The notes under the pieces are model-generated. The model was not told where the DNA came from. It searched no databases and saw only the letters and a program-made list of their open reading frames with translations. Shown piece by piece: positions 62-27,447 of a DNA stretch of 34,159 nt. The stretch covers positions 1 to 34,159 of IMG/VR virus record IMGVR_UViG_3300033420_000024. The stretch is one strand, 5' to 3'. The position numbers and the translations under genes were made by a program. Numbering within the stretch: the first letter of the stretch is position 1; every line of letters begins with the position of its first letter. The stretch comes from a virus. Lineage: Duplodnaviria > Caudoviricetes.

Positions 62-514
62 TTAAGGTGGGCTTATTCTTTTAAGTCCGCAGGCGCAATT
101 ATGCCTACAGTCTGTGCTGCCGGTTGTGGGCAATCCGATTTGCTTCCAAATCTTAAACGGTTTCTGTTGTCCGTCTCTCTCAATGCACTGCCTGCATGAC
201 TGAGCGGCATCATTTTTTACCCACTCGTAAATCGCGTCTTCGTCAAAAGTATTGAAAACAGCATTAAACTGTAATCCTTTCATTTTCTGCCATAAGGCTG
301 TGCCTTGTTTGTTTAACATAGAGGATACGGAGCTTGATTGTCCGTAAAATCTATCTTCAAGTGTTTTGTATATTTCATTATCAGACATTCCGGAAAGTTT
401 CCACTGCTTGACCTCAAGAAGTATTGCTCTTGAAAATTCGATTTCTGCTCTTATGGCTTCACTGATGAATATTTCAAGCTGTATTTCCGCGTTATTTTTA
501 TCTATTGCCGGCAT
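62..514 (-). CDS. Short phage head morphogenesis protein (MuF/SPP1 gp7-like)
   Basis: C-terminal W...CxxC...DG...P...HNCxC pattern (SCRQCIERDGQ...DCRHNCAC); lies downstream of the portal. Confidence 0.7.
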   Translation of the reverse strand: MPAIDKNNAEIQLEIFISEAIRAEIEFSRAILLEVKQWKLSGMSDNEIYKTLEDRFYGQSSSVSSMLNKQGTALWQKMKGLQFNAVFNTFDEDAIYEWVKNDAAQSCRQCIERDGQQKPFKIWKQIGLPTTGSTDCRHNCACGLKRISPP

Positions 515-515
515 A

Positions 516-1100
516 TTATTTTACACTATTCATTATTTCATTTATTGCATTTCTTACGATAATTGGAGATAGTTCATTTACCGCTGTTATTCTTAATTCG
601 TCCTTATCCTTTTCAGAGAATCCAAAGAAATTTGCGCCGGGGTTGCTTGATCTTCTAAATCCCTGGTCATATTCTCCCCTTAGATTCCATTTTGCGATAT
701 CCAAATATCTGATATCTTTTTTTTGGGTGCCTGCCCATGCCCTCTTGGAAACACTCTTGCCCGCCTTAAGCCTGCCTAAAACCCGCTCCCTGTTTGCCTC
801 GGATTTCTTAAACTCATGAGGTTGTGTGCTGATATAGAATACTACTTTTTCATCCTCTACGGTTGAGGCAAAGGCATTTTTCATAAAATCATTTGTTGCC
901 CTCATTCTCATGTTGGCATTTCCGGAAATTCCCCCGCCTCTTGCCCTTTTTACCGCCGATGTTACAGGCGATAACCTCGGGAAAGGCGTTCCATCTATTT
1001 CCCTTTGATCCATGATGTGATCCCGCATCATCTGCTTTCCCGCATCGCCGAGCTTCAAGAGAACAGCTCTAAGCTGAGTTGATGATATTAAGCGTCCCAT
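516..1100 (-). CDS. Phage virion morphogenesis protein (Mu gpG / P2 gpS-like)
   Basis: Q..IDGTPFPRLS N-terminal motif and P...FFGFSEKD C-terminal motif typical of the family. Confidence 0.7.
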   Translation of the reverse strand: MGRLISSTQLRAVLLKLGDAGKQMMRDHIMDQREIDGTPFPRLSPVTSAVKRARGGGISGNANMRMRATNDFMKNAFASTVEDEKVVFYISTQPHEFKKSEANRERVLGRLKAGKSVSKRAWAGTQKKDIRYLDIAKWNLRGEYDQGFRRSSNPGANFFGFSEKDKDELRITAVNELSPIIVRNAINEIMNSVK

Positions 1101-1390
1101 TATTCCTCTCCGTTTGCAAGTGAATCAATTCGTTTCTGTGATAAGTTCTCTGCTTTTTTAAGTTCCGTCTTGATTAATCCCTCAAGAACCTCAGCGGGAT
1201 TACCGAAAACCTTTAGCATAAGCTCTTTCTGCTCAGCCGCGGTTAGGCTATCGAATTTATCAAGGTCAATCTTGTCAAAAACCCGCATAAAAGTCTTGAA
1301 TATCTTTTTGTTATCATAAATCTTATTGATTTTTTCTTTTATGATTTTTTTGTTTTCGAATATTTCTTTAGCAAATTCTTTATGGTTCAT
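1100..1390 (-). CDS. Hypothetical protein (96 aa)
   Basis: ORF coupled to both neighbours by ATGA and TAATG overlaps. Confidence 0.7.
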   Translation of the reverse strand: MNHKEFAKEIFENKKIIKEKINKIYDNKKIFKTFMRVFDKIDLDKFDSLTAAEQKELMLKVFGNPAEVLEGLIKTELKKAENLSQKRIDSLANGEE

Positions 1391-2814
1391 AGGTAATTAT
1401 CCATTACTTTTAAAATTTCACTATGCCTATTTACGGTCAACGAATCTGTTAGCTGTAAATTAAATTCATTTGAAAGGCTTTGTATTAGAATTTCTTTTGG
1501 TAATTGTTTTGATTTAATGCCTTTGGCGTATTTGTAGTGATAAGACATGTTAGAGTCCTCACCTACGGCTTTATATCTGTTTTTCACTGTTCTTACAACT
1601 GCGAATAATTTATATTTTTCTCCAAAGTAATCTTTAACCAAATTAGCAAACTCTTCTTTTCCGTGGAACTTCTGAGCCGTGAATAAACCCGATCGGAATT
1701 TCACTGAAACATTATTTTCATCATAATATTCGTGGTAAACTCTTTTGCTTGAAACTCTTTTTAATTTTAGTTTGCTGCTATATTCGTCTTTGAACCGGCA
1801 TGATAAATAAATTGTTCCGTTTGGCTTTAACAGTGCGTTACAGCAATTCAAGACATCGGATTCAATTTCCTTGTTTACTATCGAATTTAAAACCGAATCC
1901 AAAATAATTACATCGTATAATCCATTTTTCTGAATATCTCTGATTACATCATCTATGTTTGCTCTGATTTTATTGACATCGTATTTACTGCCTTTTACTA
2001 TAAAAAACTCTATCCCAAATATTTTATATCCCTCTTTTTTCAGTTTGTTCACATATCCAAACTTTCCGGCGCCAAAATCAAGAATTCTCTGCTTTTTATT
2101 GATTTCCGGTAAAATTAAACCTTCGTAAAGTTTTGAATGGAAATTAAATTCTCCATCAACCATCCTATTCATTTGACACATAAACTGGTTACTGCTTTTC
2201 AGTGGAATATTTTCGTAATTATAATATCCATAATCCTGCTTAAGGTACTTATCTAATAATGGCTTTTTTGAATCACTTATTACGTAAACCATGGGATTTA
2301 GCTTTAGGATATAGCAACAAATGAGATAATTCATCATGGAATATACTTGACCTGTATTAAGGACCAGCGGAGTATCGAATAATCCATATTTAACAAATAA
2401 ATCCAATATATTTTTTCGGTCAACCGCATTCTCGAAAGATCCGATTTTCCCCTTGATTTCAATATCCGAGTATTGGATTTGCTGAAATCCCTCATTACGA
2501 TAAGTCTTTTTTATCCTAACCGGAAATTCCATTAGATCAAGGCTGTTGTGTAAAAGGTTAAACCTAACTTCATCCTTTATGCTAATTTTTTCCGATCTAT
2601 AAACCGCGCAAGTTTCGAAAGTTCCAAGGGAACTCATCGCCTTATGCCTCTGGTGCCCGGCAATCAGAGTATTCCTGTTAAGCAGTAACGGCCTTACTAA
2701 CCCTATCCCCTTGATACTCTCGGCAAGCATTTGAGCGCTTTCGGGTTTTATTTTTCTCGGGTTGTATTCAGCCGGCTTGATTTTCGATATTTCATAGTTT
2801 TCTATAAAATTCAT
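1387..2814 (-). CDS. ParB/Srx-like domain fused to a class I SAM-dependent methyltransferase
   Basis: IKPAEYNPRKI and LIAGHQR (ParB-N); ILDFGAG and YDVIILDSVLN (Rossmann methyltransferase). Confidence 0.8.
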   Translation of the reverse strand: MNFIENYEISKIKPAEYNPRKIKPESAQMLAESIKGIGLVRPLLLNRNTLIAGHQRHKAMSSLGTFETCAVYRSEKISIKDEVRFNLLHNSLDLMEFPVRIKKTYRNEGFQQIQYSDIEIKGKIGSFENAVDRKNILDLFVKYGLFDTPLVLNTGQVYSMMNYLICCYILKLNPMVYVISDSKKPLLDKYLKQDYGYYNYENIPLKSSNQFMCQMNRMVDGEFNFHSKLYEGLILPEINKKQRILDFGAGKFGYVNKLKKEGYKIFGIEFFIVKGSKYDVNKIRANIDDVIRDIQKNGLYDVIILDSVLNSIVNKEIESDVLNCCNALLKPNGTIYLSCRFKDEYSSKLKLKRVSSKRVYHEYYDENNVSVKFRSGLFTAQKFHGKEEFANLVKDYFGEKYKLFAVVRTVKNRYKAVGEDSNMSYHYKYAKGIKSKQLPKEILIQSLSNEFNLQLTDSLTVNRHSEILKVMDNYL

Positions 2815-3464
2815 TGCATCATTTCGCTTTTTACAAATCCGTAAAGAGTCCCGTTATCTTCAAGATATACTTTGATCTTCTTTTCGAAAAACTCCGCCTC
2901 CTCCTCTGTAAGATTTATACGATATCCCTTATACTTTATTGAATCGATTGATGAGTTTTTTGCCCCTTCGATCTGGTCAAATGTATTCTTAATATCTAAA
3001 TCGTCCTTAAGTTCGATTAGTCCCACGTCTAAGCCCACCAATTGCAACTCTTGGTCTAACAACTCAAGGCGATCATCAAGCTGGTATATTTTCAGATGCT
3101 CTCTAAGAGCTTCTTTGTTTGTTTCCGTGAAATGACTAAGATAAACTAATACCAACTCGGCCGCTTCTTGCATATCCTTACAGTCTACCCATACGGCTGA
3201 TAGCTTTTCCGGAACTTTTACGCCCTCATCATGCAGATCCTTCAACACCTCAAAGAATTTGACGCCTTCGAGTAAATAGAGCTTACCTTTATTTTCGTAA
3301 ACATGAATCACCTTAAAAAAGCTATGCCTCAGAAATGCGTTTTTAATCTTTGTGTAACCCCCAGGGATATACTCCTCGAGTTTATCATTCTGTACAGGAA
3401 TAAGTTCTTTCCAGCTTACCTGGTCGTATTTCACAATTTTATTCTTTATGGCTGTTTTTGTCAT
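2811..3464 (-). CDS. Degenerate ParB/Srx-like protein
   Basis: ParB-like layout (IKNAFLRHSF..IHV....LYLLEG) without the GHxR motif; ATGA-coupled to the ParB-methyltransferase. Confidence 0.55.
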   Translation of the reverse strand: MTKTAIKNKIVKYDQVSWKELIPVQNDKLEEYIPGGYTKIKNAFLRHSFFKVIHVYENKGKLYLLEGVKFFEVLKDLHDEGVKVPEKLSAVWVDCKDMQEAAELVLVYLSHFTETNKEALREHLKIYQLDDRLELLDQELQLVGLDVGLIELKDDLDIKNTFDQIEGAKNSSIDSIKYKGYRINLTEEEAEFFEKKIKVYLEDNGTLYGFVKSEMMQ

Positions 3465-3511: not shown

Positions 3512-3856
3512 TCATTCATTATTTTCTTCTAATTTTTTGATTAAGTCCAAAGTCTCGGCTTCCGATGCATAAAAAAAATAGTTTCTAACTTTAATCCTGT
3601 GCCCATCGATACCATCAAATTTATAGCAAATTATATCGGCTTTTTTTGCGCATATTTTCCACGTGAAGTTATTGAACTCAACATCAAACTTAAAGGATTT
3701 TTTAACTTTTTCATATTCGATCGAATCAATTATTTCGAATATCTCACCGGACTTATCGAATAACTCAAATTTTTGATTTTGAGTGTTTTCTCTCATGAAT
3801 ATTATTGAATCCGGAGAGATATAGGTTATTTCGGAGTATGTGCCTTTGATTCTCAT
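3512..3856 (-). CDS. Hypothetical protein (114 aa)
   Basis: ORF with a GAGGT ribosome-binding site directly after the portal-peptidase gene. Confidence 0.7.
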   Translation of the reverse strand: MRIKGTYSEITYISPDSIIFMRENTQNQKFELFDKSGEIFEIIDSIEYEKVKKSFKFDVEFNNFTWKICAKKADIICYKFDGIDGHRIKVRNYFFYASEAETLDLIKKLEENNE

Positions 3857-3888: not shown

Positions 3889-6000
3889 TTACCCTATCGG
3901 CTCCGTCTTTGTGCTGCTAAAGGTAATCGGCAATCCATAATAAGCTATTCCGATATTGAATAATTTATTCCCCTTGCGATCGACATCATGCCAACGTTTC
4001 TCTAAGTCATCCCATGTGATTTCACGGTTCCTAAGGGAACTCGGATCTTTCAGCTTCACAGCTTCGTTATTATATCCATAAGCAGTAACATAATGGCCAT
4101 CTTCCCACTCATTCGAATAATCGTAATCTTTTACGGTGTCAAAATGCCATGCCTGAATATCCAAAATAACAGGTATGCCTTTATCCAGATATTCCTTTAC
4201 TTCATAAGTTGACATGGATTTTAAGTCAACCGTATAGCCGTATTTTTCTAATACAGTTTTTATGTTTTCCGGCTCAGTGCCCCACTCGGGAGTTGAACCT
4301 AAATCTTTGGCCAGTTCGTCAGGGTTAGGCTCTTCACCTATCATGGCTAAAGCTGTAATTCCAACCGAATCCCCGCAGTCCCAGCAATAAAATTGCCTAT
4401 CAGTCGGCATATCTATATCTCTGCCGGCTCCGGGAACGAATAACTCCGTTTGACCACCCTTTCCCTTGCCGCCTCCGCTTACCTCCGCTACATCATCCGA
4501 CAATATCGAATCGGTTATGTTCCCAAAAACAGATTGGAATTTTTTGTTTATTTTGTAATTCTCATTCAGTCTATCCTGAGCCTCTTCGTCACTTGATATA
4601 TCAGGATTGTCTTCTCTGATTAAATCCAGGTAACTTATTGTATTGTGCTGTAACTTCATATCCCTTTCAGTCTTTGTTTCTTCCATGGTTCGAGGGAATG
4701 AAGGCTCTTTATAGTCGATAAACAGTTCGGCATCATCGGGGATGTCGTCAACATCCGGCTCTTTTTTACCTAATGACCTTACCAGATTAAATAGATCGTT
4801 TTCGAATTTAGCTAATATCGGAATCTGTTCTTTCCTTAATTCCATCAGACCCTGACTTTCGGCAACAATACCGAAACCAGAGGTATATCCCCTTTCGAGT
4901 ACAATCGAATTTAGATCAACTCCGGCATCGCTTAGCGCGTTTTTTGCGTCCCAGTCACTTTCTGTCCTTACTACACTCATATCAGATTTGAGACTTACAA
5001 ATTCGATACTTGCGTCTTTACCACTTATGGTGCTTGGTTTTAGACTCAGCACAAGGTCTGGAGATATTCTTATTCCTTGCCCGGAGTATTGTTCATTCAT
5101 TATTACTTCCTGTCCATCCGAGGCTGTTATTCTATCCCCCGGAAGTTCGGCTCTTTGGTTCCCATTTACCGCTTTACCCAGATCAATATTTTTTGCAACC
5201 AGTATACCCCCAACTGAATAAGGGATAAGATAATTTGCATAGGTGCGATTCGTAGAAGCTGCCAAAAATATCTCAACCATCCATTCAAGACCATATCCCT
5301 GAGAATCGTAATCGTCTTTATTCATTCTTAAGGGCAAGAACGGAATCACCCCATCATAGGGATTTAATCTATTTGGATTGCCTTCAACCGGCATACTAAT
5401 CAACTCTTGATCAATAACGTAGTGATCTTTTTCAGTCCAAACAATTACGGATTTTTTATATTCCTGCGGTGAAACTTCATCGATATTGAGTATCAACAAT
5501 GCGTCTATTCTGTTTTTATCTTTTGCTTTCGGGATGATAAGATACTCGAACGGTAAATAAGTCTTGATGAAAAGCTTCCCTTCCTCAAAGTAAGGTCCAA
5601 CAATTACGGTGTTGTAAAAAGTCGCTAACCTGTGATTTTTTTTCATCTCACCATTAAGATCGACTTCCTTCACAATTTTGTTGTAAGCATCGGTCAAACC
5701 GGGATCTATTTCACATTTTCCGTTTTTGACATATCTTATAGGTGAATCCTTGTATAAGCTGCAAAGCCTGCCTAAGGTCTTTGGGATTTTATTTATGTAA
5801 GGGTAACTTTTTATTTTCCTCTTTATTTCGCGTCTATCATGTATCACTGAACGCCATAAGCGCTCTTGAATCTGAGCCTTTATCGCGTCTTTGTTATTAT
5901 TATACCAGGCATAAGATTCGAGACAGCTATAAATCCTGCTGTCTTTTTTGACATTCAGCAACGTCTTTGCTCTGTCCTTTATTATTTCGTAGTTTGCCAT
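3889..6000 (-). CDS. Portal protein with C-terminal C39-like cysteine peptidase
   Basis: Immediately follows terL; about 500-aa portal-sized N-terminal part with an SPP1-portal-like end. The last ~175 aa carry QxxxxxCG, GT, HYV and DPS motifs. Confidence 0.8.
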   Translation of the reverse strand: MANYEIIKDRAKTLLNVKKDSRIYSCLESYAWYNNNKDAIKAQIQERLWRSVIHDRREIKRKIKSYPYINKIPKTLGRLCSLYKDSPIRYVKNGKCEIDPGLTDAYNKIVKEVDLNGEMKKNHRLATFYNTVIVGPYFEEGKLFIKTYLPFEYLIIPKAKDKNRIDALLILNIDEVSPQEYKKSVIVWTEKDHYVIDQELISMPVEGNPNRLNPYDGVIPFLPLRMNKDDYDSQGYGLEWMVEIFLAASTNRTYANYLIPYSVGGILVAKNIDLGKAVNGNQRAELPGDRITASDGQEVIMNEQYSGQGIRISPDLVLSLKPSTISGKDASIEFVSLKSDMSVVRTESDWDAKNALSDAGVDLNSIVLERGYTSGFGIVAESQGLMELRKEQIPILAKFENDLFNLVRSLGKKEPDVDDIPDDAELFIDYKEPSFPRTMEETKTERDMKLQHNTISYLDLIREDNPDISSDEEAQDRLNENYKINKKFQSVFGNITDSILSDDVAEVSGGGKGKGGQTELFVPGAGRDIDMPTDRQFYCWDCGDSVGITALAMIGEEPNPDELAKDLGSTPEWGTEPENIKTVLEKYGYTVDLKSMSTYEVKEYLDKGIPVILDIQAWHFDTVKDYDYSNEWEDGHYVTAYGYNNEAVKLKDPSSLRNREITWDDLEKRWHDVDRKGNKLFNIGIAYYGLPITFSSTKTEPIG

Positions 6001-6015: not shown

Positions 6016-7293
6016 TTAATAGTAAACCGCACTATCATCATCTTTTTTATAAATCGCATAAGCAGGATAATCTACGCAGTCAGTCCAATGGGTTGCGCGT
6101 TTTGCTGATTTATCCTTGCCTCTACCTTCGTCTTTATCGTATTTGTTGATTGACCACATCGCGCCCTGAACATCTTCAATACAGTCAACTAAAGTTTCCA
6201 CGAATTGAATGTTTCCGTTTTCAAGTTCTTTGTTTACGGTCGGGACTCTTTCCTTCACCAGTGGATTATGATATACTCTGTTTTCGTAGTTTGGATGCCG
6301 CTCAAAAGCCCTATCTATAAGTTCGAAATCAGAATAAGTAGCAGCAGTTGACCTGAGCGATAAGGATGTTGAATCACCGTAAACAATTAATCCGAAATAT
6401 TTTAAATTCCCTCTTGCATCAAGTATTTTAATTCCTAACTCCCTGATCATTAGCTCGGTTCTTGCCGCATCCATGACTACCTGGTCAAAGAATATCATTT
6501 TACCGTCTACTATCTGAAACAACAGCCAAACGCAAGGGTTACGGTTAAAATCACAGCTGATATAAATTGGCAAATTATACTTTGGCTCATATTTTTTTAT
6601 TATGTTCTTTTCTTTGCTAAAACAGTAATAAATCGAATCTTTGTATAGATCGATATAGGCGCCTTCCAGGTATCTTTGCTGTCTCTTTGAATCGTATTTT
6701 GTCTCCGCGTTTTTCGAATACTCTTTTCTTAGAAATGTATTTTCCCGAGTGCTTGCTCTAACGAATAGCTTTAAATCGCTTGACGATGGCGGGAATTCTT
6801 TCTCCAGCCATTTGTAATCCCCAGGTGTGGTTGTTACTCCTATCTGCAGTAGTTTCGCTTTTGGGTCCCTAACCCTTGCCTCTATCTCTAAATAACATTC
6901 GTATGCCATGATCCCGGCTTCATCCAGCAAAGCCCATGCAACGTTAGGCCCGCGTAAAGTATCTGGATTGGCGGCATTAGAAAACCAGATTTCACTATTC
7001 CACTGGGGGAATCTTATGCTTTCTTCTGATTTTAATCTTTCGTGCCTTATCCTGTAAGGCGATATCTGATGTTTCCCGTTGAGTATTTCAAGAAGTGTCC
7101 TTTGAATGATTCTGTGAGACATTTTAAAGGTAGGCGAAACAATAACCCCAACACAATTCTTATTTATTCTTGACATAGCTATAGCCCACATCACCCCGAT
7201 CAGCGTTTTACCGCTTCCCTGACCCCCAATAAACGCTTTGTAAAAGTGCTTTGTATCAAATAACCATAAATGTTGTTTAGGTAGTAGATACAT
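6016..7293 (-). CDS. terL: Terminase large subunit
   Basis: Walker A GGQGSGKT, LRGPN, Walker B ALLDEA, motif III TTTP, nuclease domain with SCDFN and HWTDCVDY. Confidence 0.95.
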   Translation of the reverse strand: MYLLPKQHLWLFDTKHFYKAFIGGQGSGKTLIGVMWAIAMSRINKNCVGVIVSPTFKMSHRIIQRTLLEILNGKHQISPYRIRHERLKSEESIRFPQWNSEIWFSNAANPDTLRGPNVAWALLDEAGIMAYECYLEIEARVRDPKAKLLQIGVTTTPGDYKWLEKEFPPSSSDLKLFVRASTRENTFLRKEYSKNAETKYDSKRQQRYLEGAYIDLYKDSIYYCFSKEKNIIKKYEPKYNLPIYISCDFNRNPCVWLLFQIVDGKMIFFDQVVMDAARTELMIRELGIKILDARGNLKYFGLIVYGDSTSLSLRSTAATYSDFELIDRAFERHPNYENRVYHNPLVKERVPTVNKELENGNIQFVETLVDCIEDVQGAMWSINKYDKDEGRGKDKSAKRATHWTDCVDYPAYAIYKKDDDSAVYY

Positions 7294-7869
7294 CCCCTTC
7301 GTCTTTCTCCCCTGTTTGCTCCCCCTCGGGAATTTCTGTTACTATCTCCGCTTCTTTGAAATCGCTAAAGAATTTATCCTCCTCATCTTTCAGCTTGTCA
7401 TCGTTTGGATTATTTATTTTAGCTTTCTCAATTTGAACCCTCTCAATTTCTGTCTGTGATTTTATCACTAACGATATCCCCTTTATCGCTTCGCTCAGTG
7501 AATCAAAGTCTTTTTTCTCCATAACTTTGTTCACAATCGAATTATTTGCTACGATAAGGATGTTATCAAGGATTCGCATTTTTTGACAATAATCCAACGC
7601 CTGCTTTTCACCGGCTTCGGATGCTTTTTTTTTACAGCTTCTTGAAATGATTCGGCTCTTTTTTGGTCAAAAACGTTAGCCTTCTGTTTACTTGCTGTTA
7701 TTTTGAGGTTGAGCCTTCCAACAGCATAGCTAATTTTTTTGATGTTACAGAACTCTTTGAGCGTTTTTCCCCTGTTCTCAATTTTGAATAAATCAAGTTC
7801 CTCCTGGAGTTTCACCCAATCATGCCGAATCAGTTTCTTTTTCTTTTCTTGTTTTTTCTCTTTTGCCAT
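7277..7869 (-). CDS. Putative terminase small subunit, split into two frames (7549-7869 and 7277-7597) at an A9 run
   Basis: Directly upstream of terL; N-terminal HTH-like part and helical C-terminal part become one 197-aa frame after a -1 shift at 7625-7633. Confidence 0.6.
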
Positions 7870-7937
7870 CAAATCATTATTTTTATTACAAAATAATGAG
7901 AGTGCATAGGACGAATCAAGTATACATCAAAAAAAAG

Positions 7938-8237: not shown

Positions 8238-9290
8238 TCAATTCGTGTTATCGAGGAGCAACTTTTCTTTTTCTATGTTTAAATTATTCACAACGCCCTG
8301 CTGGTCATTTGTCCGTAAGTGTGAATATATTTCAGTAGTTTTGGTGTTCGAGTGCCCCAGAAGTTTGGAAACCGTGAAGAATGGGACGTTTTCCATCAGA
8401 AGATTTGAGGCAAAGCTATGTCTTAAGGTGTGAAACGTAATGGAGGTATCTTTCCCGAATACTTTCCTTGCTAATTTTTTGTATACAAGGAATAGGTGCC
8501 CAGTCCACTTTTTGCCCTTATAGGTAAAAACAAACCTGTTTGATTTTTTCAAATACCTGTATTTTAATATTGCTATTACATCATCCGAAAGTGGTATTAC
8601 TCTGATTTCTCCGCTTTTCGTTTGATGTCCTACGTTATTTAATGTTATAATTTTTCTTTCGATATTGACCTTATCCCATGTCAGATTGGTTAACTCACCC
8701 CGCCTCATACCGGTCATAAAGGCAACAATAATGGCATCCTGTAAATCTTTCTCTTTGCAGGCTTTCAGCAACATTAGGAGCTGCTCTTTTGTGAGATACC
8801 CCTTTTCGATTTTTGGAGTCTTTATTTTTATTAACCCGAATGAAAAGTTTTTGTTTATGTAGTTTTTTTCTTTTGCGTACTCGATTGCGTGTTTGATCAT
8901 AATCATTTTTTGCTTTATCGTTCCCGGCTTGTAGTTCCTATTAAAAAGTTCTGAATTGTATTCCTCAACATGTTCCGGCTTAAGTTTGTCCATATTGATA
9001 GAATTGCCTAAGAACTTACCAAAATCCTTTATCAGAGCTTTATAGGATTTTGCAAGACTCTTAGTAAGATACAGCGCTTTGTAAGACGATATCTTGTCTG
9101 CAAGTTCTGATACTGAAATTGATTTCACACTGCCCGAAAACCTGTTTTCAATATCTTTTTTGAATTTAGAATATACCTCATGCGCCTTAACCGAGTTTTT
9201 TGTTTTTGTAGATACTTTTGTCCTCTTGCCGGTTACATGGTGAAGATAGTAAATGTTCCAATAACCATTTTTTTCTTTCCTTAAAAACAT
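8238..9290 (-). CDS. int: Tyrosine integrase with N-terminal arm-binding-like domain
   Basis: TGMRRGE, TKSG, FHTLRHS, LLGH, TEIYSH catalytic set; N-terminal YWNIYY...GKRTKVSTKT beta domain; AGGAGG ribosome-binding site. Confidence 0.95.
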   Translation of the reverse strand: MFLRKEKNGYWNIYYLHHVTGKRTKVSTKTKNSVKAHEVYSKFKKDIENRFSGSVKSISVSELADKISSYKALYLTKSLAKSYKALIKDFGKFLGNSINMDKLKPEHVEEYNSELFNRNYKPGTIKQKMIMIKHAIEYAKEKNYINKNFSFGLIKIKTPKIEKGYLTKEQLLMLLKACKEKDLQDAIIVAFMTGMRRGELTNLTWDKVNIERKIITLNNVGHQTKSGEIRVIPLSDDVIAILKYRYLKKSNRFVFTYKGKKWTGHLFLVYKKLARKVFGKDTSITFHTLRHSFASNLLMENVPFFTVSKLLGHSNTKTTEIYSHLRTNDQQGVVNNLNIEKEKLLLDNTN

Positions 9291-14349: not shown

Positions 14350-15364
14350 CTGGATTCTCCATTTGTGATTTTAGCATTGTGTAATTTTTAAATAACTTTT
14401 CAGGACTCACAATTCGGCTTTGCCAGAATGGGTGAGCCAGCGCCCAAAGCAAGACCTTTTCGATTTCGCTCCTATCCCTGCCGTTGGACATGTAGAAAAT
14501 ATCATTTGCCCATCCCTGAATATTTATTTTCACTCCCGAATCCTTTTTCTTGATTTCCTGAGCAAACTTCGAGGCGATATAATACTCCTCACTTGCGATG
14601 CTGAACATCCTGAAAGTTTGTTTAGGCGGATCCGGAGGTTCTGGGGTTTCCGGAGGGTTTGTATCTTCGATTATTTCCGGAGTGATAATTTCAGGATCAG
14701 GGGTTTCCAAAGTTCCGCTTTGACCAGGTTCCGGATTTTCTTTTTTCGGCTTAATAGAATTAATATCCTTTACTTTACTCTTCTTTTCTTTTATATACCG
14801 CTCAGAATCTGGATTGACTCCGGATTGAATCTGGATTGACTCCGGATTGAATCTGGATTGACTCCGGATTGAATCTGGATTGACTCCGGATTTACCCTGC
14901 AATAAATCAAGTATCAATCTGGATTGAATCTGGATTATTTCTTCACAAGTCATTGTAAACAAAGATTCTTCCGATAATACTTTTATACGGTTTTTTATTT
15001 TATCAAAAAATATATTTTTAATATTCTCTTTGCTTTTGTAAAGTTTCAGTAAATAATCCTTATGATTTAATAGGAAATTTGAACTAAAAAGAATATTCTG
15101 ACTGTGAAGTTCTTTGCTTATAAGTCCCTTTTTAGCCAAATATTCTATTATTTCTTTAATCTGTGCTGAATCCAAATTTAAAGAAGCTGCGAAACCCCTA
15201 AGCCATTGCGGAGTCATGAATACCATATACAGGTTATCCTGTCGCAATGCTAACTCTTCCAGCAAAGAGAACCATACCGCATACCCTACAGCTCCATGTT
15301 TACTTATAAGAAATCCTATCGATTCGTCTGCTCTTGTATTTACCGAGTGCCCAAAATAATTCAT
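14231..15364 (-). CDS. Phage replication initiator (Lin1244/DUF4373-like N-terminus)
   Basis: MNYFGH...HGAVGYAVWFSLLEEL N-terminus, internal iterons, C-terminal FWQSRIVSPEKLFKNY motif of initiator C-domains. Confidence 0.8.
   Translation of the reverse strand: MNYFGHSVNTRADESIGFLISKHGAVGYAVWFSLLEELALRQDNLYMVFMTPQWLRGFAASLNLDSAQIKEIIEYLAKKGLISKELHSQNILFSSNFLLNHKDYLLKLYKSKENIKNIFFDKIKNRIKVLSEESLFTMTCEEIIQIQSRLILDLLQGKSGVNPDSIRSQSRFNPESIQIQSGVNPDSERYIKEKKSKVKDINSIKPKKENPEPGQSGTLETPDPEIITPEIIEDTNPPETPEPPDPPKQTFRMFSIASEEYYIASKFAQEIKKKDSGVKINIQGWANDIFYMSNGRDRSEIEKVLLWALAHPFWQSRIVSPEKLFKNYTMLKSQMENPDGNTKQGSKEFLNETIEQKAARYKAIRERKAVPAEPTRN
14805..14936. repeat. Iteron array, probable replication origin
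   Basis: Four perfect copies of GAATCTGGATTGACTCCGGATT at 14805-14892, plus two 11-mers at 14915-14936, next to an AT-rich tract. Confidence 0.85.
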
Positions 15365-16519: not shown

Positions 16520-17302
16520 TTATCTCATAGGCTCATCTCCGGTTTGATGATTTCCCAGATATTTGTCTTTATCGATTACAATTAAAACAGTTTCTATGTT
16601 TGTACCGCTCTCTTTGAATGTTCCTTTTTCGATTTCTTCAATAAAGCAGTCCTTCCCATCAAGCCAGTTTTTGAAATCAGTCTCTTTTTTATTGCTTGAT
16701 ATTTTCCAGTGCTTAGAGGAAAGCGTTACGATACGTCCACCCGGTTTGGTAACTTCATACATCTTGTAAATATGATCTATGTCTTGGTTTTTTGAGAATG
16801 GCGGGTTAGCGATAACCAAATCGTATTTATCCGTCCTATCACATTCTAAAAAATCATTACCGCATAAAGTTACTCCTGGAATATCTAAAAGCATCATATA
16901 GTTTATATCCATTGCTTCATAGCAATCAACTCTTATGAGCGGTTCAACCTTTTTAATAGCCTTTATAAGCGCGCCTTGACCTGCTGACGGCTCTAAGACT
17001 TTCATCATAGAATTTAAGTTGGAAAGTTCCACCATGTAATCGGCTAATTTTTCAGGGGTTGCGAAAAACTGATATTCTTTTTTTAGATTTGCTTTTTCTC
17101 CGTTTTTTATTTTCTCGAAATAATCAGTTGGGTCATTAGGGAAAACAAAGCCGGATACTTTCCCGCCCTTCCATTTTCCTCCGATTAATTCAAGAGAATT
17201 TTTCACTTCTAAATAAAGGTTTCGATCAAGTTGTGCGTCAGGCAGTTTTAAAATATTTCCATTTATTGTGCATCTTTCAAATACTTCTTCTTTGGTTGTC
17301 AT
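16520..17302 (-). CDS. Orphan amino-type (N6A/N4C) DNA methyltransferase
   Basis: FFATP, motif I VLEPSAGQG, motif IV ANPPF, FKESGT. Confidence 0.85.
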   Translation of the reverse strand: MTTKEEVFERCTINGNILKLPDAQLDRNLYLEVKNSLELIGGKWKGGKVSGFVFPNDPTDYFEKIKNGEKANLKKEYQFFATPEKLADYMVELSNLNSMMKVLEPSAGQGALIKAIKKVEPLIRVDCYEAMDINYMMLLDIPGVTLCGNDFLECDRTDKYDLVIANPPFSKNQDIDHIYKMYEVTKPGGRIVTLSSKHWKISSNKKETDFKNWLDGKDCFIEEIEKGTFKESGTNIETVLIVIDKDKYLGNHQTGDEPMR

Positions 17303-17496
17303 CCATTATTCCTTGTTTGATTAAATGATTTTTGTTTACACGTTACAAAATGAGATACTCTCACATGAACATACCTGCCGGTTGCTTTATCGTATTGAAC
17401 CGAAGGATTGACATTCAAAGGAATCTTTTTATGATTCTGATTGAATACAAATTCGATTTTTTCTCCGCACTTCTTGCAGGTTATGATTGCTCCCAT
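17299..17496 (-). CDS. Small zinc-binding phage protein
   Basis: CKKC...HFVTC. Confidence 0.75.
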   Translation of the reverse strand: MGAIITCKKCGEKIEFVFNQNHKKIPLNVNPSVQYDKATGRYVHVRVSHFVTCKQKSFNQTRNNG

Positions 17497-17500
17497 GATA

Positions 17501-17860
17501 TTACACTAAACTTAATTGTTCAACATCGTTTTTACACTGTTTTGGAATAATAACAGGATTGGTTTCCTCAATGAAATAACCACCTGCTTTTATTCTGTTT
17601 TTTGTGATTTCCAATTCAAAGACGTCTGATTTGAGAACATATATTCCGGTTTGTCTGCAAGGCATTTCATACCTAACAAGACCCTTGAATCTTAATTCTC
17701 TCAAATACCTTAAGCCGTGCTTGAGGGTTACAGGATTGAAATTAACTATATCCTCTTCCCTAAACTGCTTGTTTCTGCTTACCGCAATTGTTGAAAGGAA
17801 ATCAATCACAGTCGGCATATACTCCGACCATTTAATTTTTATTTCAACCCACCTCTGCAT
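17501..17860 (-). CDS. Hypothetical protein, possible winged HTH
   Basis: LRYLRELRFKGLVRY...GIY pattern; TAATG-coupled. Confidence 0.55.
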   Translation of the reverse strand: MQRWVEIKIKWSEYMPTVIDFLSTIAVSRNKQFREEDIVNFNPVTLKHGLRYLRELRFKGLVRYEMPCRQTGIYVLKSDVFELEITKNRIKAGGYFIEETNPVIIPKQCKNDVEQLSLV

Positions 17861-18609
17861 TACGCCGCTTCCTCTGATTTTTCGGTTTTTAGATCCTCAA
17901 GAATCAATTCGAGTTCGGTAATAGATAGTTTGCTCAGCTTTTCCATTTCTTCTTTTCTATCACCGAAAATAATTTGATCTTTTTCGATTTTAGCTGTTAT
18001 TATTTTACTAATCAGATCGCTTTGATACTTTTTAGGAGTGTTTTTTGATTTGAATTTTCTCTGACTGATTTTCCGGTCAATTTCTTTGTTTAATCCTTCT
18101 TCCGGATTTTCGTTAAGAGTTTTCAGTAAATCTTGCAACTCTTTTATTGAGTTCTTTTGTAGGTTGCTTTCAAGGTCAACCGTAAAAGTTTCAGGTTCAT
18201 TAAGTTCATACCAGTCGATGATTGATTGAATAAGCTCGGCTTTTTCTCTCATTGCGGGCGTGGTTACCTCGATTGTGAGATCGCCTTCGTGAAGCACTTT
18301 TTTTAGTTCACTTACCGCTTGATTTACTCCACCATAAGGGAAATCCCTTACCAGCGCTTCGCCTTTTGCAAATAAATCTCTTTCTGATTCAAACAGTCCC
18401 GGCTGCATAATTTTTTCGCTAAATTCAGAAATATCGTAAACAAACTTTCCAATACGTTTTTTTAACGCTTGTTTTAATATCTCGACATTTTCAGATTCAA
18501 GAATGATATCATCGGCTTCTTTTAGAGCATACTGCCTATCTGCGGGATTCCAGTTTTCACCGTCTTTTAATGCGATACCAATCGCCTCAATAAATTTTGT
18601 ATCTTCCAT
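17860..18609 (-). CDS. Hypothetical protein (249 aa)
   Basis: Long ORF with AAGGTG ribosome-binding site. Confidence 0.75.
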   Translation of the reverse strand: MEDTKFIEAIGIALKDGENWNPADRQYALKEADDIILESENVEILKQALKKRIGKFVYDISEFSEKIMQPGLFESERDLFAKGEALVRDFPYGGVNQAVSELKKVLHEGDLTIEVTTPAMREKAELIQSIIDWYELNEPETFTVDLESNLQKNSIKELQDLLKTLNENPEEGLNKEIDRKISQRKFKSKNTPKKYQSDLISKIITAKIEKDQIIFGDRKEEMEKLSKLSITELELILEDLKTEKSEEAA

Positions 18610-18635
18610 TTTTTACACCTTTAAAATAATTTTAT

Positions 18636-19016
18636 TTAACAGTTAGTTTTTAATTCCAAAAAATGTTTTAATAGATTTTGAACGTGCCTATACTCCGCAA
18701 TGATTGACTTATCCTTTACGAAAGGCATAGTTTCATCAATTCGCTTTAGGTGATTTTTGATTTTTTCAGGGTCAAACTTACCCTTGAAGCTCTGAAAGTC
18801 CTTGTAATGCAGGACGTTTCTTGTCTCAAGGTTGTTGTTTAGTGTAGTTATATCGATAAGGTTATCGAATAGTTTTTTATATAGATTTGCCTTCATTCCA
18901 AGATTCATTTGCATTTGCAGAATCTCGGAATATCTTATTTGTGAAAGAGCTAATAATAAATTTTGCTCTTTGTTTTCGTCGAGTTGAATTGAATCGAATA
19001 ATTTAGTATTTACCAT
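18636..19016 (-). CDS. Hypothetical protein (126 aa)
   Basis: ORF with GAGGG ribosome-binding site. Confidence 0.7.
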   Translation of the reverse strand: MVNTKLFDSIQLDENKEQNLLLALSQIRYSEILQMQMNLGMKANLYKKLFDNLIDITTLNNNLETRNVLHYKDFQSFKGKFDPEKIKNHLKRIDETMPFVKDKSIIAEYRHVQNLLKHFLELKTNC

Positions 19017-24413: not shown

Positions 24414-25106
24414 GTGAAACGAGCGATTTATCCGTTGATATTTATCTTAATCTTGTTGTGTGCTTCATGTAGTAAAGATAGCAACCCTGTTGAATCAACC
24501 CCAAAAAGCGATGGCACAGTAACCGATATTGACGGCAATATTTATAATTATATTACCATAGGCAATCAAACGTGGATGCAAGAAAATTTAAAAACAACAA
24601 AATATAGAAACGGCGATGCGTTACCAAACGTAACTACGAATGGGGATTGGATAGTGCTTAAAACCGGCACATACTGTGATTACAACAACAATCCTACAAA
24701 CGCTGAAATATATGGAAGGCTATACAACTGGTATGCGGTGAATGATACGAGAGGTCTTGCCCCTCTTGGTTGGCATGTAGCAAGCGATTCTGAGTGGACA
24801 AAGCTAATTAATTATTTGGGTGGTGAGTCAGTAGCAGGAAGCAAATTAAAAAAGCTTCATAATTCTTACTGGCAAACTTCCGATATAGTTGTGAGTAACA
24901 GTAGCGGGTTCGAGGCTATACCCAGCGGTTTTCGTAATATCGACGGTTCTTTTGTGTGGCTTGGCTATACTACCTATTGGTGGACTTCGACAGTAGATAA
25001 CTTTAGTGCGGCATGGAATAGGCATTTGCATTACGATTTTGAAAAAATATTCAGGGATAGTAATGAAAAAAACGGTGGTTTTTCGGTTCGATGTATAAAG
25101 GATTAG
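24414..25106 (+). CDS. Fibrobacter succinogenes major paralogous domain (Fib_succ_major) lipoprotein
   Basis: Lipobox-like CASC; VTDIDGNIY..ITIGNQTWMQENL, YGRLYNWYA, PLGWHV..DSEW, GFSVRCIKD. Confidence 0.93.
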   Translation: MKRAIYPLIFILILLCASCSKDSNPVESTPKSDGTVTDIDGNIYNYITIGNQTWMQENLKTTKYRNGDALPNVTTNGDWIVLKTGTYCDYNNNPTNAEIYGRLYNWYAVNDTRGLAPLGWHVASDSEWTKLINYLGGESVAGSKLKKLHNSYWQTSDIVVSNSSGFEAIPSGFRNIDGSFVWLGYTTYWWTSTVDNFSAAWNRHLHYDFEKIFRDSNEKNGGFSVRCIKD

Positions 25107-25117
25107 ATTACATTACG

Positions 25118-25202
25118 CTTAATCCATGAGGCTAATTTCAGTGAATTTGATTTTAAGACCAAGGGTCAGAAAATCACAGAGAGTAAGAAGAAACAGAAGT
25201 AA
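25118..25202 (+). repeat. Direct repeat copy 2 (orphan alternative RHH C-terminus)
   Basis: Encodes LIHEANFSEFDFKTKGQKITESKKKQK-stop, against ...ESKKKKK-stop in copy 1. Confidence 0.95.
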
Positions 25203-25271
25203 CGGCTCACCCAGATAGCCTCAGAGTGAAAAAATAAGGAGTTCTTATCTTTCAGTGTATTCAATAATTAT

Positions 25272-25300
25272 TTGAATTTTTCATGAATTATACTTATCTT
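25272..25300 (+). promoter_or_regulatory. Candidate promoter for the dinD-like gene
   Basis: TTGAAT-17 bp-TATCTT, followed by a GAGGGT site and ATG 25323. Confidence 0.45.
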
Positions 25301-25322
25301 CAAATAATAACGAGGGTAAAAT

Positions 25323-26144
25323 ATGAATAACGAAATAAATCAAAAAGCATTGACCTTGTCATTCGAGGATTTCAAAAAAGAAAATGGAATGACTTATTGG
25401 TGGGCAAGCGATCTGTTAAGAATGCTTGGCTACAAAGATTTGAAGAGTTTTCAGGGCGCAATCGATAGAGCAATAAAAGCCTGCCTAACCCTAAAAATAT
25501 CCCACGATTCTAATTTTTTGACTGAATATCGAGGCGAAAATAAAATAAAAGATTACAAGCTAACCCGCTTCGCCTGTTATCTTACCGTTATGAATGCCGA
25601 TCCCAAAAAGCCGGAAGTTGCAAAGGCTCAGGTTTATTTCGCAGAACAAACAAGAAAATTCGAGTTGTATCTTGAAAGCACTGAAGAGTTCGACCGGTTA
25701 CTAGTCAGAGATGAACTCAAAGAAGGCAATAAAGCTCTTTTTTCGGTTGCTCAAAAAGCAGGCATTGAGGATTTTGCGAAATTCAATAATGCAGGGTATC
25801 TGGGATTATATAATATGTTTAATGTAACCTTGGCAAAGGAAAGGAATATCGATAGCAAAGAATTATTTGAATATATGGGTAGAACCGAACTTGCGGCAAA
25901 TCTTTTTAGAACCACTCAAACAGAAGAAAGAATCAAGAATCAAAGAATAACCGGTCAAGAAAACCTTGAAAATACTCACAAAGAAGTTGGCGCAGAAATT
26001 AGAGACATGATGAAGAAAAATACAGGCGTCAATCCCGAAGATTTGCCTATTGAGCGAAAAATCCATGATGTTCAAAAAGAGATTAAACAGGGTTACAGAA
26101 AAATGCTGAAAGAAGATAATACCAAGAAGAAAAAAAAGACATAA
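25323..26144 (+). CDS. dinD: DNA damage-inducible protein D-like (Bro-N) protein
   Basis: DYKLTRFACYLTVMNADPKKPEVAKAQVYFAEQTR, AGYLGLY, MGRTELAANLFRTTQTEE, PEDLP. Confidence 0.9.
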   Translation: MNNEINQKALTLSFEDFKKENGMTYWWASDLLRMLGYKDLKSFQGAIDRAIKACLTLKISHDSNFLTEYRGENKIKDYKLTRFACYLTVMNADPKKPEVAKAQVYFAEQTRKFELYLESTEEFDRLLVRDELKEGNKALFSVAQKAGIEDFAKFNNAGYLGLYNMFNVTLAKERNIDSKELFEYMGRTELAANLFRTTQTEERIKNQRITGQENLENTHKEVGAEIRDMMKKNTGVNPEDLPIERKIHDVQKEIKQGYRKMLKEDNTKKKKKT

Positions 26145-26161
26145 CTTATTATAAATAATCA

Positions 26162-26177
26162 AGGGGCTTGCGCCCCT
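26162..26177. terminator. Hairpin between convergent genes
   Basis: AGGGGC-TTGC-GCCCCT between the stops at 26144 (+) and 26186 (-). Confidence 0.6.
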
Positions 26178-26185
26178 CCTTAATT

Positions 26186-26434
26186 TTACTCTTTTTTTAA
26201 CATTCTCATAGCCTGCCTTTCTGAAATCTTAATTCCATATTTTTCTTCCAATTCCAAGACAAGCATTGAGTAAATATCCATCAAAAAATACTTTCCCTCC
26301 GCTTTTAGGTTTACAAAAATAGTTTGCATTAATTGGTTTCTCTCATAATTATCTAACTGATCTTTTTCTCTTCTTTTCCGTGATACTTTTTCGCCTTCAA
26401 AATAAATCTCCGTAATAACAACAAATTTACTCAT
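26186..26434 (-). CDS. Small protein with C-terminal HTH (Mor-like)
   Basis: ERNQ...LEEKYGIKISERQAMRML. Confidence 0.5.
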   Translation of the reverse strand: MSKFVVITEIYFEGEKVSRKRREKDQLDNYERNQLMQTIFVNLKAEGKYFLMDIYSMLVLELEEKYGIKISERQAMRMLKKE

Positions 26435-26619
26435 AATTTTGACCCTTAAAAATGATTATAAAGATAGTTTTTTCTTATGAGTGTAGGGTATTGGTATTAT
26501 CGGAATGGTATATAATAATATAACCGGTTGTTAGTGAGTGGATACGCTGTTTTTTTTATTTTACTTTTCACAAAAAATGATTATATTCCCTGAGCGATTA
26601 TTTAAAAAAGTGAGAAGAA

Positions 26620-27447
26620 ATGAAGAAACATTTATTGTTATATTTAGCCTCAGCGTTCTTTCTGATCGCCTGCTCAGCTTCACACGAGCCAAATGGAGGC
26701 GATAAAATCCCAGAGGCGATTCAGGATACTACCCTTCCCTACAATAGCGTTCATTTATCGTTAGGGTTACCGGTTGATGCCGATTCAACCGATGAATATG
26801 TTTTAGTACGCCCTCAGTATGCCCTTTCTTATAATAAAAATCTGAATGTTTCCAACTGGGTGTCATGGGAGTTGAACAGTAATTGGTTTGGTGATGTTGA
26901 TCGATATTCAGGTAATTTCATTCAGGACCCACTATTGCCGGAAGGATATTATAGGGTAACTCACAATGATTATACAAATAGCGGTTATGACCGCGGACAT
27001 ATGGTCCGGAGTGAAGAGAGAACCAGAACAGACGAAGATAATAAAAGCACTTTCTATACAACAAACATATTACCACAAATGCCGGATCTAAATCAAGGGG
27101 TTTGGCTTAATTTGGAATATCATTGTGAAGACCTTTGCAAACAGCAAAATAAAGAATTATTTGTTTTAGCTGGCGGAGTGTTTTACACAAAAAATAAATT
27201 AAAAAACGTTGTAACGGTTCCGGATTCCTGCTGGAAAATAATTATAATTTTGAATAAAGGTCAAGGAATAGGTGATATTAACGGCAATACGGAAGTTATC
27301 GCCGTGATGATGCCGAATATTGCGGGAATCCGGAAAGATACTTGGGATAAATACAAAACAACTATCCGAAGGATCGAAGGATCGACCGGATATAATTTCT
27401 TATCAAGAGTGAGTAAGTCAATTCAAGACGTGATAGAGAATAAATAA
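26620..27447 (+). CDS. DNA/RNA non-specific endonuclease lipoprotein (NucA/Serratia family)
   Basis: Lipobox LIAC; YALSYN, NWVSW, SGYDRGH, TNILPQ..DLNQGVW..LE; candidate promoter TTTACT-17-TATATT upstream. Confidence 0.93.
   Translation: MKKHLLLYLASAFFLIACSASHEPNGGDKIPEAIQDTTLPYNSVHLSLGLPVDADSTDEYVLVRPQYALSYNKNLNVSNWVSWELNSNWFGDVDRYSGNFIQDPLLPEGYYRVTHNDYTNSGYDRGHMVRSEERTRTDEDNKSTFYTTNILPQMPDLNQGVWLNLEYHCEDLCKQQNKELFVLAGGVFYTKNKLKNVVTVPDSCWKIIIILNKGQGIGDINGNTEVIAVMMPNIAGIRKDTWDKYKTTIRRIEGSTGYNFLSRVSKSIQDVIENK

Follow-up and report, generated by a model that had tools for sequence, protein, structure and literature searches.

Effector domains fused to portal or MuF proteins have already been published as parts of polyvalent proteins (PMC5512222, PMC9503650), and the architectural idea of mounting an effector on either carrier is thus established. 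The portal passengers described among polyvalent proteins are PBECR, 2H, InPase, Nudix, ART and lysozyme domains. The main text of PMC5512222 names four other peptidase superfamilies and contains the words 'C39', 'papain' and 'cysteine' 0 times, and its supplements may list such a domain. MuF polymorphic toxins, which include the papain-like MuF-Tox-PL1 (PMC3482391, PMC5576092), are C-terminal cargoes of a portal-vertex protein in temperate phages. Phage T4 uses capsid-targeting leaders to bring proteins into its head, from where they are delivered (PMC9026906, PMC3012670). As for C39 peptidases, the closest known relatives are those of the AMS/PCAT transporters (ComA, LahT, PCAT1) and PeiR of the provirus phi-mru (PDB 8z4h), a C39-family enzyme that cuts a pseudomurein cross-link (PMC6189367). 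PeiR processes no leaders; it is equipped with pseudomurein-binding repeats and acts from outside to lyse cells.

The locus described here lies in a 34,159-nucleotide stretch of tailed-phage DNA (IMG/VR record IMGVR_UViG_3300033420_000024; Caudoviricetes), which we call the window, and encodes a portal fused to a C39-like peptidase domain. As in the polyvalent proteins, an enzyme that is shared with InPase, 2H and Nudix proteins is mounted on a portal or MuF protein and is predicted to be packaged in the head, but here the passenger is a C39 domain. Like the MuF toxins, it is a C-terminal cargo on a portal-vertex protein of a probably temperate phage, and the same C39 domain also occurs on MuF proteins (loci L045 and L046). 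Unlike those polymorphic toxins, however, it is a conserved domain, it is anchored to a protein that is essential, the portal, and no constant immunity gene follows it. Free phage copies of the peptidase subfamily share the leader spacing of the T4 internal proteins and are found in similarly tagged gene arrays, whereas this phage has neither such leaders nor a gp21-type protease in the genes seen and uses a covalent portal fusion instead. The domain has the fold and the Gln-Cys-His-Asp set of the AMS/PCAT peptidases, but it is C-terminal, comes with no ABC transporter and no conserved GG leader, and belongs to a subfamily apart, marked by conserved Trp-rich motifs that the transporter domains lack. 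PeiR is likewise a phage-encoded member of the C39 family, but its binding repeats have no counterpart here. No description of a portal-C39 fusion was found in the literature searched, which consisted mostly of papers available without subscription and included PMC7824862. What is new in the present analysis is that it refutes a GG leader, ties the domain to free copies that bear leaders, shows that it occurs together with canonical head proteases and offers a lead in the form of a G-[K/R]-G motif.

A portal gene that continues into a peptidase domain

The features of the fusion gene and of its neighbourhood in the window are listed below.

3889..6000, minus strand: portal-C39 fusion gene of 703 aa; one ORF, with the same frame in contig L001 and with fused relatives
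4534..6000, minus strand: SPP1/80alpha-type portal domain, residues 1-489 (AlphaFold2, Foldseek, Atlas)
4534..4686, minus strand: three C-terminal helices, residues 439-489, predicted crown toward the capsid interior (from the model, by presumed equivalence)
4408..4545, minus strand: variable linker, residues 486-531 (19-80 aa among relatives)
4471..4506, minus strand: double-glycine-leader-like stretch, seen here only and not conserved
4456..4470, minus strand: G-K-G-K-G, residues 511-515, with the recurrent G-[K/R]-G, a candidate release site
3892..4407, minus strand: C39-like papain-fold domain, residues 532-703 (Pfam PF13529/PF03412; PeiR; Atlas)
4393..4395, minus strand: Gln536, predicted oxyanion residue, present in 18/18 fusions
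4375..4377, minus strand: Cys542, predicted nucleophile, present in 17/18 fusions (Gly in P0017)
4093..4095, minus strand: His636, predicted catalytic, present in 18/18 fusions
4045..4047, minus strand: Asp652, predicted catalytic, present in 18/18 fusions
6016..7293, minus strand: large terminase (phrog_2, E 4e-33; Pfam)
7549..7872, minus strand: small terminase candidate (phrog_370, E 0.005, weak)
3512..3856, minus strand: ORF of 114 aa in the variable slot that follows the portal, with no counterpart seen in the slots of relatives
1100-1390, minus strand: conserved gene of ~95 aa (same order in L003, L005, L028, L030 and L035)
516-1100, minus strand: neck-1-like gene (phrog_26; same order in the same five loci)
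62..514, minus strand: Cys-motif minor head protein, possibly MuF-like (weak; TIGR01641, E 0.039)

The earlier note on this DNA had described a gene after terL that runs from a portal-sized region into a peptidase domain. It is a single ORF of 703 aa (6000-3889) that starts 15 nt past terL, and both the four catalytic residues and the 12 linker residues at 4506-4471 read as that note had placed them. The fusion is real. A second contig, L001, which is 99.93% identical to the window over 16 kb, contains the identical 703-aa frame, with 3 nt differences within the gene; contigs from two further studies span the linker, and portal relatives at 24-62% portal identity are likewise fused. Together, these three lines rule out an assembly artefact as the source of the fusion. 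Among the phage records, none from a cultured or annotated phage was found to encode this portal, and the peptidase had matches in just 3 of them, all unannotated and from huge phages.

Beyond the window, at 16840-18650 of L001, a coiled-coil scaffold-like gene (16840-17586) is followed by the major capsid gene (17628-18650; phrog_247, E 2.5e-34), with tail genes further on. The terminase precedes the portal gene and the scaffold and capsid genes follow it, as for SPP1-like portals. For the product of 62-514, the MuF profile comparison reached only 1.8%. An integrase gene at 8238-9290 of the window suggests that the phage is temperate. We also observed that the capsid protein of the related locus L035 falls into one cluster with Candidatus Kapabacteria proteins from metagenome-assembled genomes.

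On its own, the N-terminal half matches no sequence in PDB and no Pfam or PHROG family, and the Pfam scan of the window protein gave no match to PF05133; among its relatives, P0022 is above the gathering cut-off of that family and P0012 and P0098 are below it. We found 390 portal relatives among 1.84 billion representatives and used the best 150 of the 390. An AlphaFold2 model of the portal half, built with a 134-row alignment, has a pLDDT of 91.7 and a pTM of 0.87. All Foldseek matches listed for this model are portal or portal-tail entries, headed by the SaPI1/80alpha portal (E 2e-13) and including SPP1 gp6 (E 2e-11, TM 0.57), and PF05133-type clusters of the Atlas match the portal half at TM 0.71-0.76. 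The portal identity proposed earlier is thus borne out by the model and both structure searches: as modelled, the N-terminal half is a portal of the SPP1 type, with wing, stem, clip and crown.

In the portal, which is a dodecamer, the C-terminal crown is directed toward the capsid interior. In 80alpha, a three-helix crown faces the DNA within the capsid (PMC10541612), and the T4 crown is likewise inside (PMC9958956). Since the model ends in three helices and these two crowns are inside the capsid, the peptidase most likely hangs in the head lumen, by analogy with both phages.

In the C-terminal half, residues 542-653 match Pfam Peptidase_C39_2 with 47.4 bits (cut-off 24) and Peptidase_C39 with 28.1 bits (cut-off 22), and the domain reaches a TM of about 0.9 to C39_2 clusters of the Atlas. 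Among solved sequences, PeiR comes first (E 7e-13), with ComA, LahT and PCAT1 ranking behind it (3e-10 to 2e-7). With the predicted Gln-Cys-His-Asp set present and both cut-offs passed, the intact catalytic set proposed in the earlier note stands. Judged from its sequence, the C-terminal domain is an intact C39-like cysteine peptidase fold with a predicted catalytic set.

Carriers of the peptidase and the head proteases beside them

A viral scan for the peptidase subfamily gave 24 loci. The same subfamily is found on HK97-type portals (L038/L040, L042), on MuF proteins (L045, L046) and on an InPase polyvalent protein (L047/L048). A search for longer peptidase-bearing proteins gave 46 matches, among them long proteins that also harbour 2H, Nudix or GNAT domains, as in P0178, P0180, P0183 and P0191, or a topoisomerase-I domain. 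In a quick tree, a single clade of portal-borne copies (9 rows versus 21) was rejected at p-AU 1e-53. In another tree, the domain of L042 groups with MuF-borne copies (SH-aLRT 97). The occurrence of one subfamily on MuF, portal and polyvalent carriers strengthens the analogy to MuF-fused head cargo that had been drawn before.

Stand-alone copies in large phages sit in arrays of genes with shared N-termini. T4 IPII and IPIII begin with MKTYQEFIAE (NC_000866), and a leader pattern with the T4 spacing was found in 10/11 stand-alone phage copies as against 0/40 short cellular copies, bearing in mind that the pattern was written after the leaders had been viewed and that the 10 matches amount to about five lineages (four are close kin). 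Its background is 2/142 ORFs in the portal- and MuF-fusion loci and 15/75 ORFs in the array loci. By this analogy, the free phage copies look like T4 internal proteins. No conserved neighbourhood of the stand-alone copies was detected among 652 neighbours in 102 loci.

A genome scan covering 80 of 165 loci returned peptidase-only matches throughout. In these 80 loci, cellular members are either short proteins that lack a leader, in Patescibacteria and DPANN archaea, or proteins with N-termini that by eye resemble signal peptides, in Obscuribacterales and others. Cellular fusion partners are N-formylglutamate amidohydrolase (PF05013), M28/M20 and M14, and phage copies lie beside, or are fused to, an M14-like deacetylase in L007, L043, P0189 and P0190. 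With PeiR as the nearest solved relative and amidohydrolase, exopeptidase and M14 domains as partners, a small peptide or isopeptide is suggested as the substrate.

Canonical head proteases of the S78 or ClpP type, with visible catalytic motifs, are encoded downstream of the domain in L038, L042, L045 and L046, that is, in 4/4 of the non-SPP1-type head modules that carry the domain and have downstream DNA. Since a canonical protease is also encoded, the domain does not replace the head protease in these four. In the SPP1-type loci with scaffold and capsid genes (L001, L005, L030, L035), no other head protease was recognised, selected ORFs having been scanned in L005, L030 and L035. The absence of a recognised second protease suits a maturation role, and it also leaves none to free the domain. 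Proheads of the SPP1 type do not require a protease. The domain of the window is papain-like and does not have an assemblin or ClpP serine-protease fold. Small ORFs follow the fusion in 9/13 loci and differ between lineages; there are none in L030, L042, L045 and L046.

We favour, at about an even chance of being right, the reading that the peptidase is an accessory head-loaded cargo of the portal that is released and acts early in infection. Head loading is proposed because other phages attach the same domain to different head proteins, and accessory status because the other modules keep a head protease in 4/4 cases and relatives have lost or inactivated the domain (see below). The portal would serve as the anchor that loads the C39-like enzyme into the phage head, possibly with up to 12 copies per head. 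A cut in the variable linker would then free the domain, G-[K/R]-G being the candidate site in about half of the lineages. The freed domain might be ejected into the host and could act there, early in infection, on a peptide or isopeptide target.

The maturation-protease role raised in the earlier note is weakened by the four modules with a canonical protease, and keeps in its favour the four SPP1-type loci where none was recognised. In such a role, the crown-tethered domain would trim scaffold or internal proteins during prohead maturation. The predicted luminal position and the strong conservation of the peptidase agree with in-head processing, as does the lack of a recognised separate protease in L001, L005, L030 and L035. 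Nevertheless, we consider it unlikely: canonical proteases coexist with the domain wherever the other modules could be followed (4/4), portal, scaffold and capsid suffice for functional SPP1 proheads (PMC6316719), the domain is lost or inactivated in relatives, and G-[K/R]-G, taken as a scaffold site, is absent from 4/4 scaffolds.

Linker, clade history and selection

In an alignment of 18 fusions with the window's protein as the reference, G-[K/R]-G occurs in 8/18 linkers versus 1.1 expected from shuffles. Counting one linker per lineage, it occurs in 6/12, and no tripeptide reached 6 in 5,000 shuffles; these shuffles take no account of local clusters of Gly and Lys, and the relatives counted are not independent. 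By comparison, the motif is present in 3/111 tails of unfused portals (3.1 expected), and its background excess in 1,507 phage windows is 1.33. It also lies ahead of the separately gained domain of P0047. However, G-[K/R]-G is missing from 10/18 linkers, from five further short-linker sequences and from the stretch before the domain in 16/17 other fusions checked. Because it is missing from these linkers and from most other fusions, it is no universal release site; because it recurs above chance, self-release is conceivable. We therefore take G-[K/R]-G as a lead, namely a candidate release site limited to some lineages. An internal ribosome-binding site was considered as the reason for the motif and rejected: its codons vary, and there is no downstream in-frame start with a good Shine-Dalgarno sequence in the five DNA-backed linkers that contain the motif.

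In its boldest form, which we consider improbable, self-release would make the domain a counter-defence enzyme with three loading routes that severs its linker in the prohead at G-[K/R]-G, is ejected and removes a peptide or isopeptide mark of the host. We are similarly doubtful that the domain is never released and, being cytoplasmic during assembly, acts as a tethered guard that cuts host sensors or strips host-added tags off the portal or prohead. Such a guard could do without any cleavage site, in agreement with linkers that vary from 19 to 80 aa and share no universal motif. A host sensor does bind portals (Avs4-portal structure 8dgf), and head-linked enzymes may counter immunity against portal or terminase (PMC9503650). 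Nevertheless, permanent tethering leaves the free copies with their capsid-targeting-like leaders unexplained, and we found no publication that ties Avs4, portal and protease together.

In a portal tree of 67 rows, one clade (support 100/100) comprises 20 rows, 18 with the domain and two without; among the 18 domain-bearing rows, two are the same sequence and L033 is split by a stop. The same tree indicates that P0047 gained the domain separately, on an SPP1-type portal. Altogether, four changes are needed to account for the gains and losses of the domain. P0013 and P0157 are devoid of it, and a cluster-mate of P0013 is on a 10.8-kb contig. P0013 is the sister of P0017, which keeps the domain and has lost the Cys. 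The loss in P0010 rests on a 1,031-nt contig, and L033 has an in-frame stop at the portal-peptidase junction. No genomic contexts were found for the unfused or separately fused portal relatives. Based on these sequence comparisons, the fusion is old and selected and sets apart a deep clade of siphophage-like phages that are uncultured.

Compared with the window's protein, the aligned fusions are 24-62% identical in the portal and 33-70% in the peptidase, the peptidase being the more conserved half in 17/17 comparisons with the window's protein and in 134/136 pairs. Its dN/dS is 0.08-0.11 in 5/7 pairs, with one pair identical and one saturated, which shows purifying selection on the domain. Conservation of this strength is more in keeping with a substrate that stays the same than with an arms race. 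It also bears on a quite improbable alternative, in which the domain would be a non-proteolytic or near-neutral passenger, i.e. a binding module, another kind of hydrolase or a hitch-hiking domain. The repeated losses, the domain of P0017 that persists without its Cys and the glycosidase activity described for one C39-like archaeal protein (PMC13642728) are in line with this alternative. They are set against the conservation of the Cys in 17/18 fusions and of Gln, His and Asp in 18/18, a Cys motif that is kept in all 20 further phage copies checked, a dN/dS of about 0.1 and an intein inserted directly past the catalytic His motif of P0169/P0192.

Portal and peptidase may have partly separate histories within the clade. 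Between L033 and L034, dS is 0.05 in the portal and 1.42 in the C39 domain, and between L034 and L035 it is 0.72 and 0, respectively. The switch point between L033 and L034 falls in a 44-nt identical stretch, after which comes the stop of L033. A strain from another study differs from the window at 27/404 nt in the peptidase and at 9/714 nt in three other pieces. The peptidase may thus be exchanged as a cassette between portals, although assembly chimeras at the 44-nt stretch could mimic such mosaics.

The earlier note had proposed that the linker contains a double-glycine leader of the kind cut by C39 peptidases. The spacing itself is there, with a hydrophobic residue at each of -4, -7 and -12 and an acidic one at -8, but the published consensus, Leu(-12), Glu(-8) and Leu(-7) before Gly-Gly (PMC6363468), is reached only through the conservative substitutes Ile, Asp and Val. 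A relaxed leader pattern was found in 1/18 aligned fusions and in 1/27 of a wider set, and a strict one in 0/27 of that set, for which the patterns were run on the 110 residues preceding the domain. Plain GG occurs in 7/18 linkers versus 7.6 in shuffles, which is chance level. One subgroup of fusions has linkers of 19-23 aa with no GG, and the peptidases of relatives without GG are still 63-70% identical to that of the window. The relaxed pattern, which was written post hoc, arises in 915/200,000 shuffles of the window linker (0.5%). The NCBIfam leader models gave no match to the linker at E values up to 5, and no ABC domain was detected among the 40 window ORFs scanned. The proposal had been made to depend on conservation of the GG motif in fused homologues, where it is in fact not conserved. 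It is hence very improbable that the domain recognises a bacteriocin-type leader and cuts itself off after Gly510, despite the rarity of the spacing in shuffles of its own linker and its true family link to the ComA, LahT and PCAT1 domains.

Implications for phage heads and the start of infection

The natural portals of this clade tolerate a C-terminal domain of ~20 kDa, potentially on all 12 subunits; in T4, portal-GFP fusions have been shown to occupy as many as roughly half of the positions (PMC9958956). The peptidase subfamily has been placed on head-loading carriers repeatedly, namely twice on SPP1-type portals, and on HK97-type portals, MuF proteins, polyvalent proteins and proteins with T4-like leaders. 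This repeated placement points to a recurring, so far undescribed job inside the head or as infection begins, and with a domain of 175 aa and of known fold, that job is directly testable. If the domain does release itself and remove a host mark, it would be a widespread counter-defence enzyme, carried into the heads of unrelated tailed phages by the portal, the MuF-polyvalent and the T4-type-leader routes, and it would point to a host mechanism that has so far not been described.

Sequence variation in the portal-C39 gene and at a relative's junction

Residues 538, 539, 546 and 547 of the C39 domain in the window's portal-C39 fusion (4361-4388, minus strand), which adjoin the catalytic Cys, depart from the family. 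Protein P0001, 99% identical to the window's protein, carries family-type letters at these residues, and a strain in sequencing run X2 differs from the window at the same bases, amid a dense substitution patch. Judged from these sequences, 4361-4388 looks like a recombined patch.

In L033, an SPP1-type portal/C39 relative, an in-frame stop (3944-3946) is located exactly where the portal meets the peptidase. The peptidase frame 3' of the stop is intact and under purifying selection. The stop might represent a split gene, read-through or a sequence error.

Other genes in the window and in related head modules

The following genes were found in the window:
1387-3464, minus: ParB-N + methyltransferase gene (475 aa) and 217-aa partner, interrupting the head module
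3512-3856, minus: 114-aa ORF after the portal, weak Cas12a NUC domain matches
24414-25106, plus: Fib_succ_major domain gene
25323-26144, plus: Bro-N protein gene
26620-27447, plus: non-specific endonuclease gene

Neither Cas12a NUC match of the 114-aa ORF (PF18510, E 3.6e-4; TIGR04330, E 1e-3) reaches cut-off. The last three genes (24414-27447), on the strand opposite to the head genes, are moron-like. Within the replication-initiator gene, an imperfect ~44-nt tandem repeat (14805-14936; 84% over 88 nt) is origin-like.

In all four SPP1-type loci with visible scaffold and capsid genes, the major capsid gene is followed by a gene of 148-191 aa whose product begins with a hydrophobic stretch resembling a signal peptide:
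L001:18566-19141
L005:10276-10725
L030:4998-5465
L035:6126-6572

Locus L003 (8234-10142) harbours a MuF-like gene with a ~280-aa C-terminal extension, which had no match in family searches, followed by a 195-aa gene. This arrangement is toxin-immunity-like.

Inteins, partners and cellular members of the C39 subfamily

P0169 and P0192, phage C39 proteins with a T4-like capsid-targeting leader, contain an intein with a LAGLIDADG domain directly 3' of the catalytic His motif, and the MuF of L045, a MuF-fused C39 locus, also has an intein. The C39 of L141 neighbours a C45-like hydrolase, both with the same leader. In probable phage DNA, an M14-like 'N-acetyl-ornithine deacetylase' (NF052223, score under cut-off) adjoins or is fused to C39:
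L007:858-1586
L043:8506-9330
proteins P0189 and P0190

Patescibacteria, DPANN archaea and Obscuribacterales contribute strikingly many of the cellular C39-subfamily members (L051-L130, the best 80 of 165 loci) in raw locus counts, not normalised for genome numbers.
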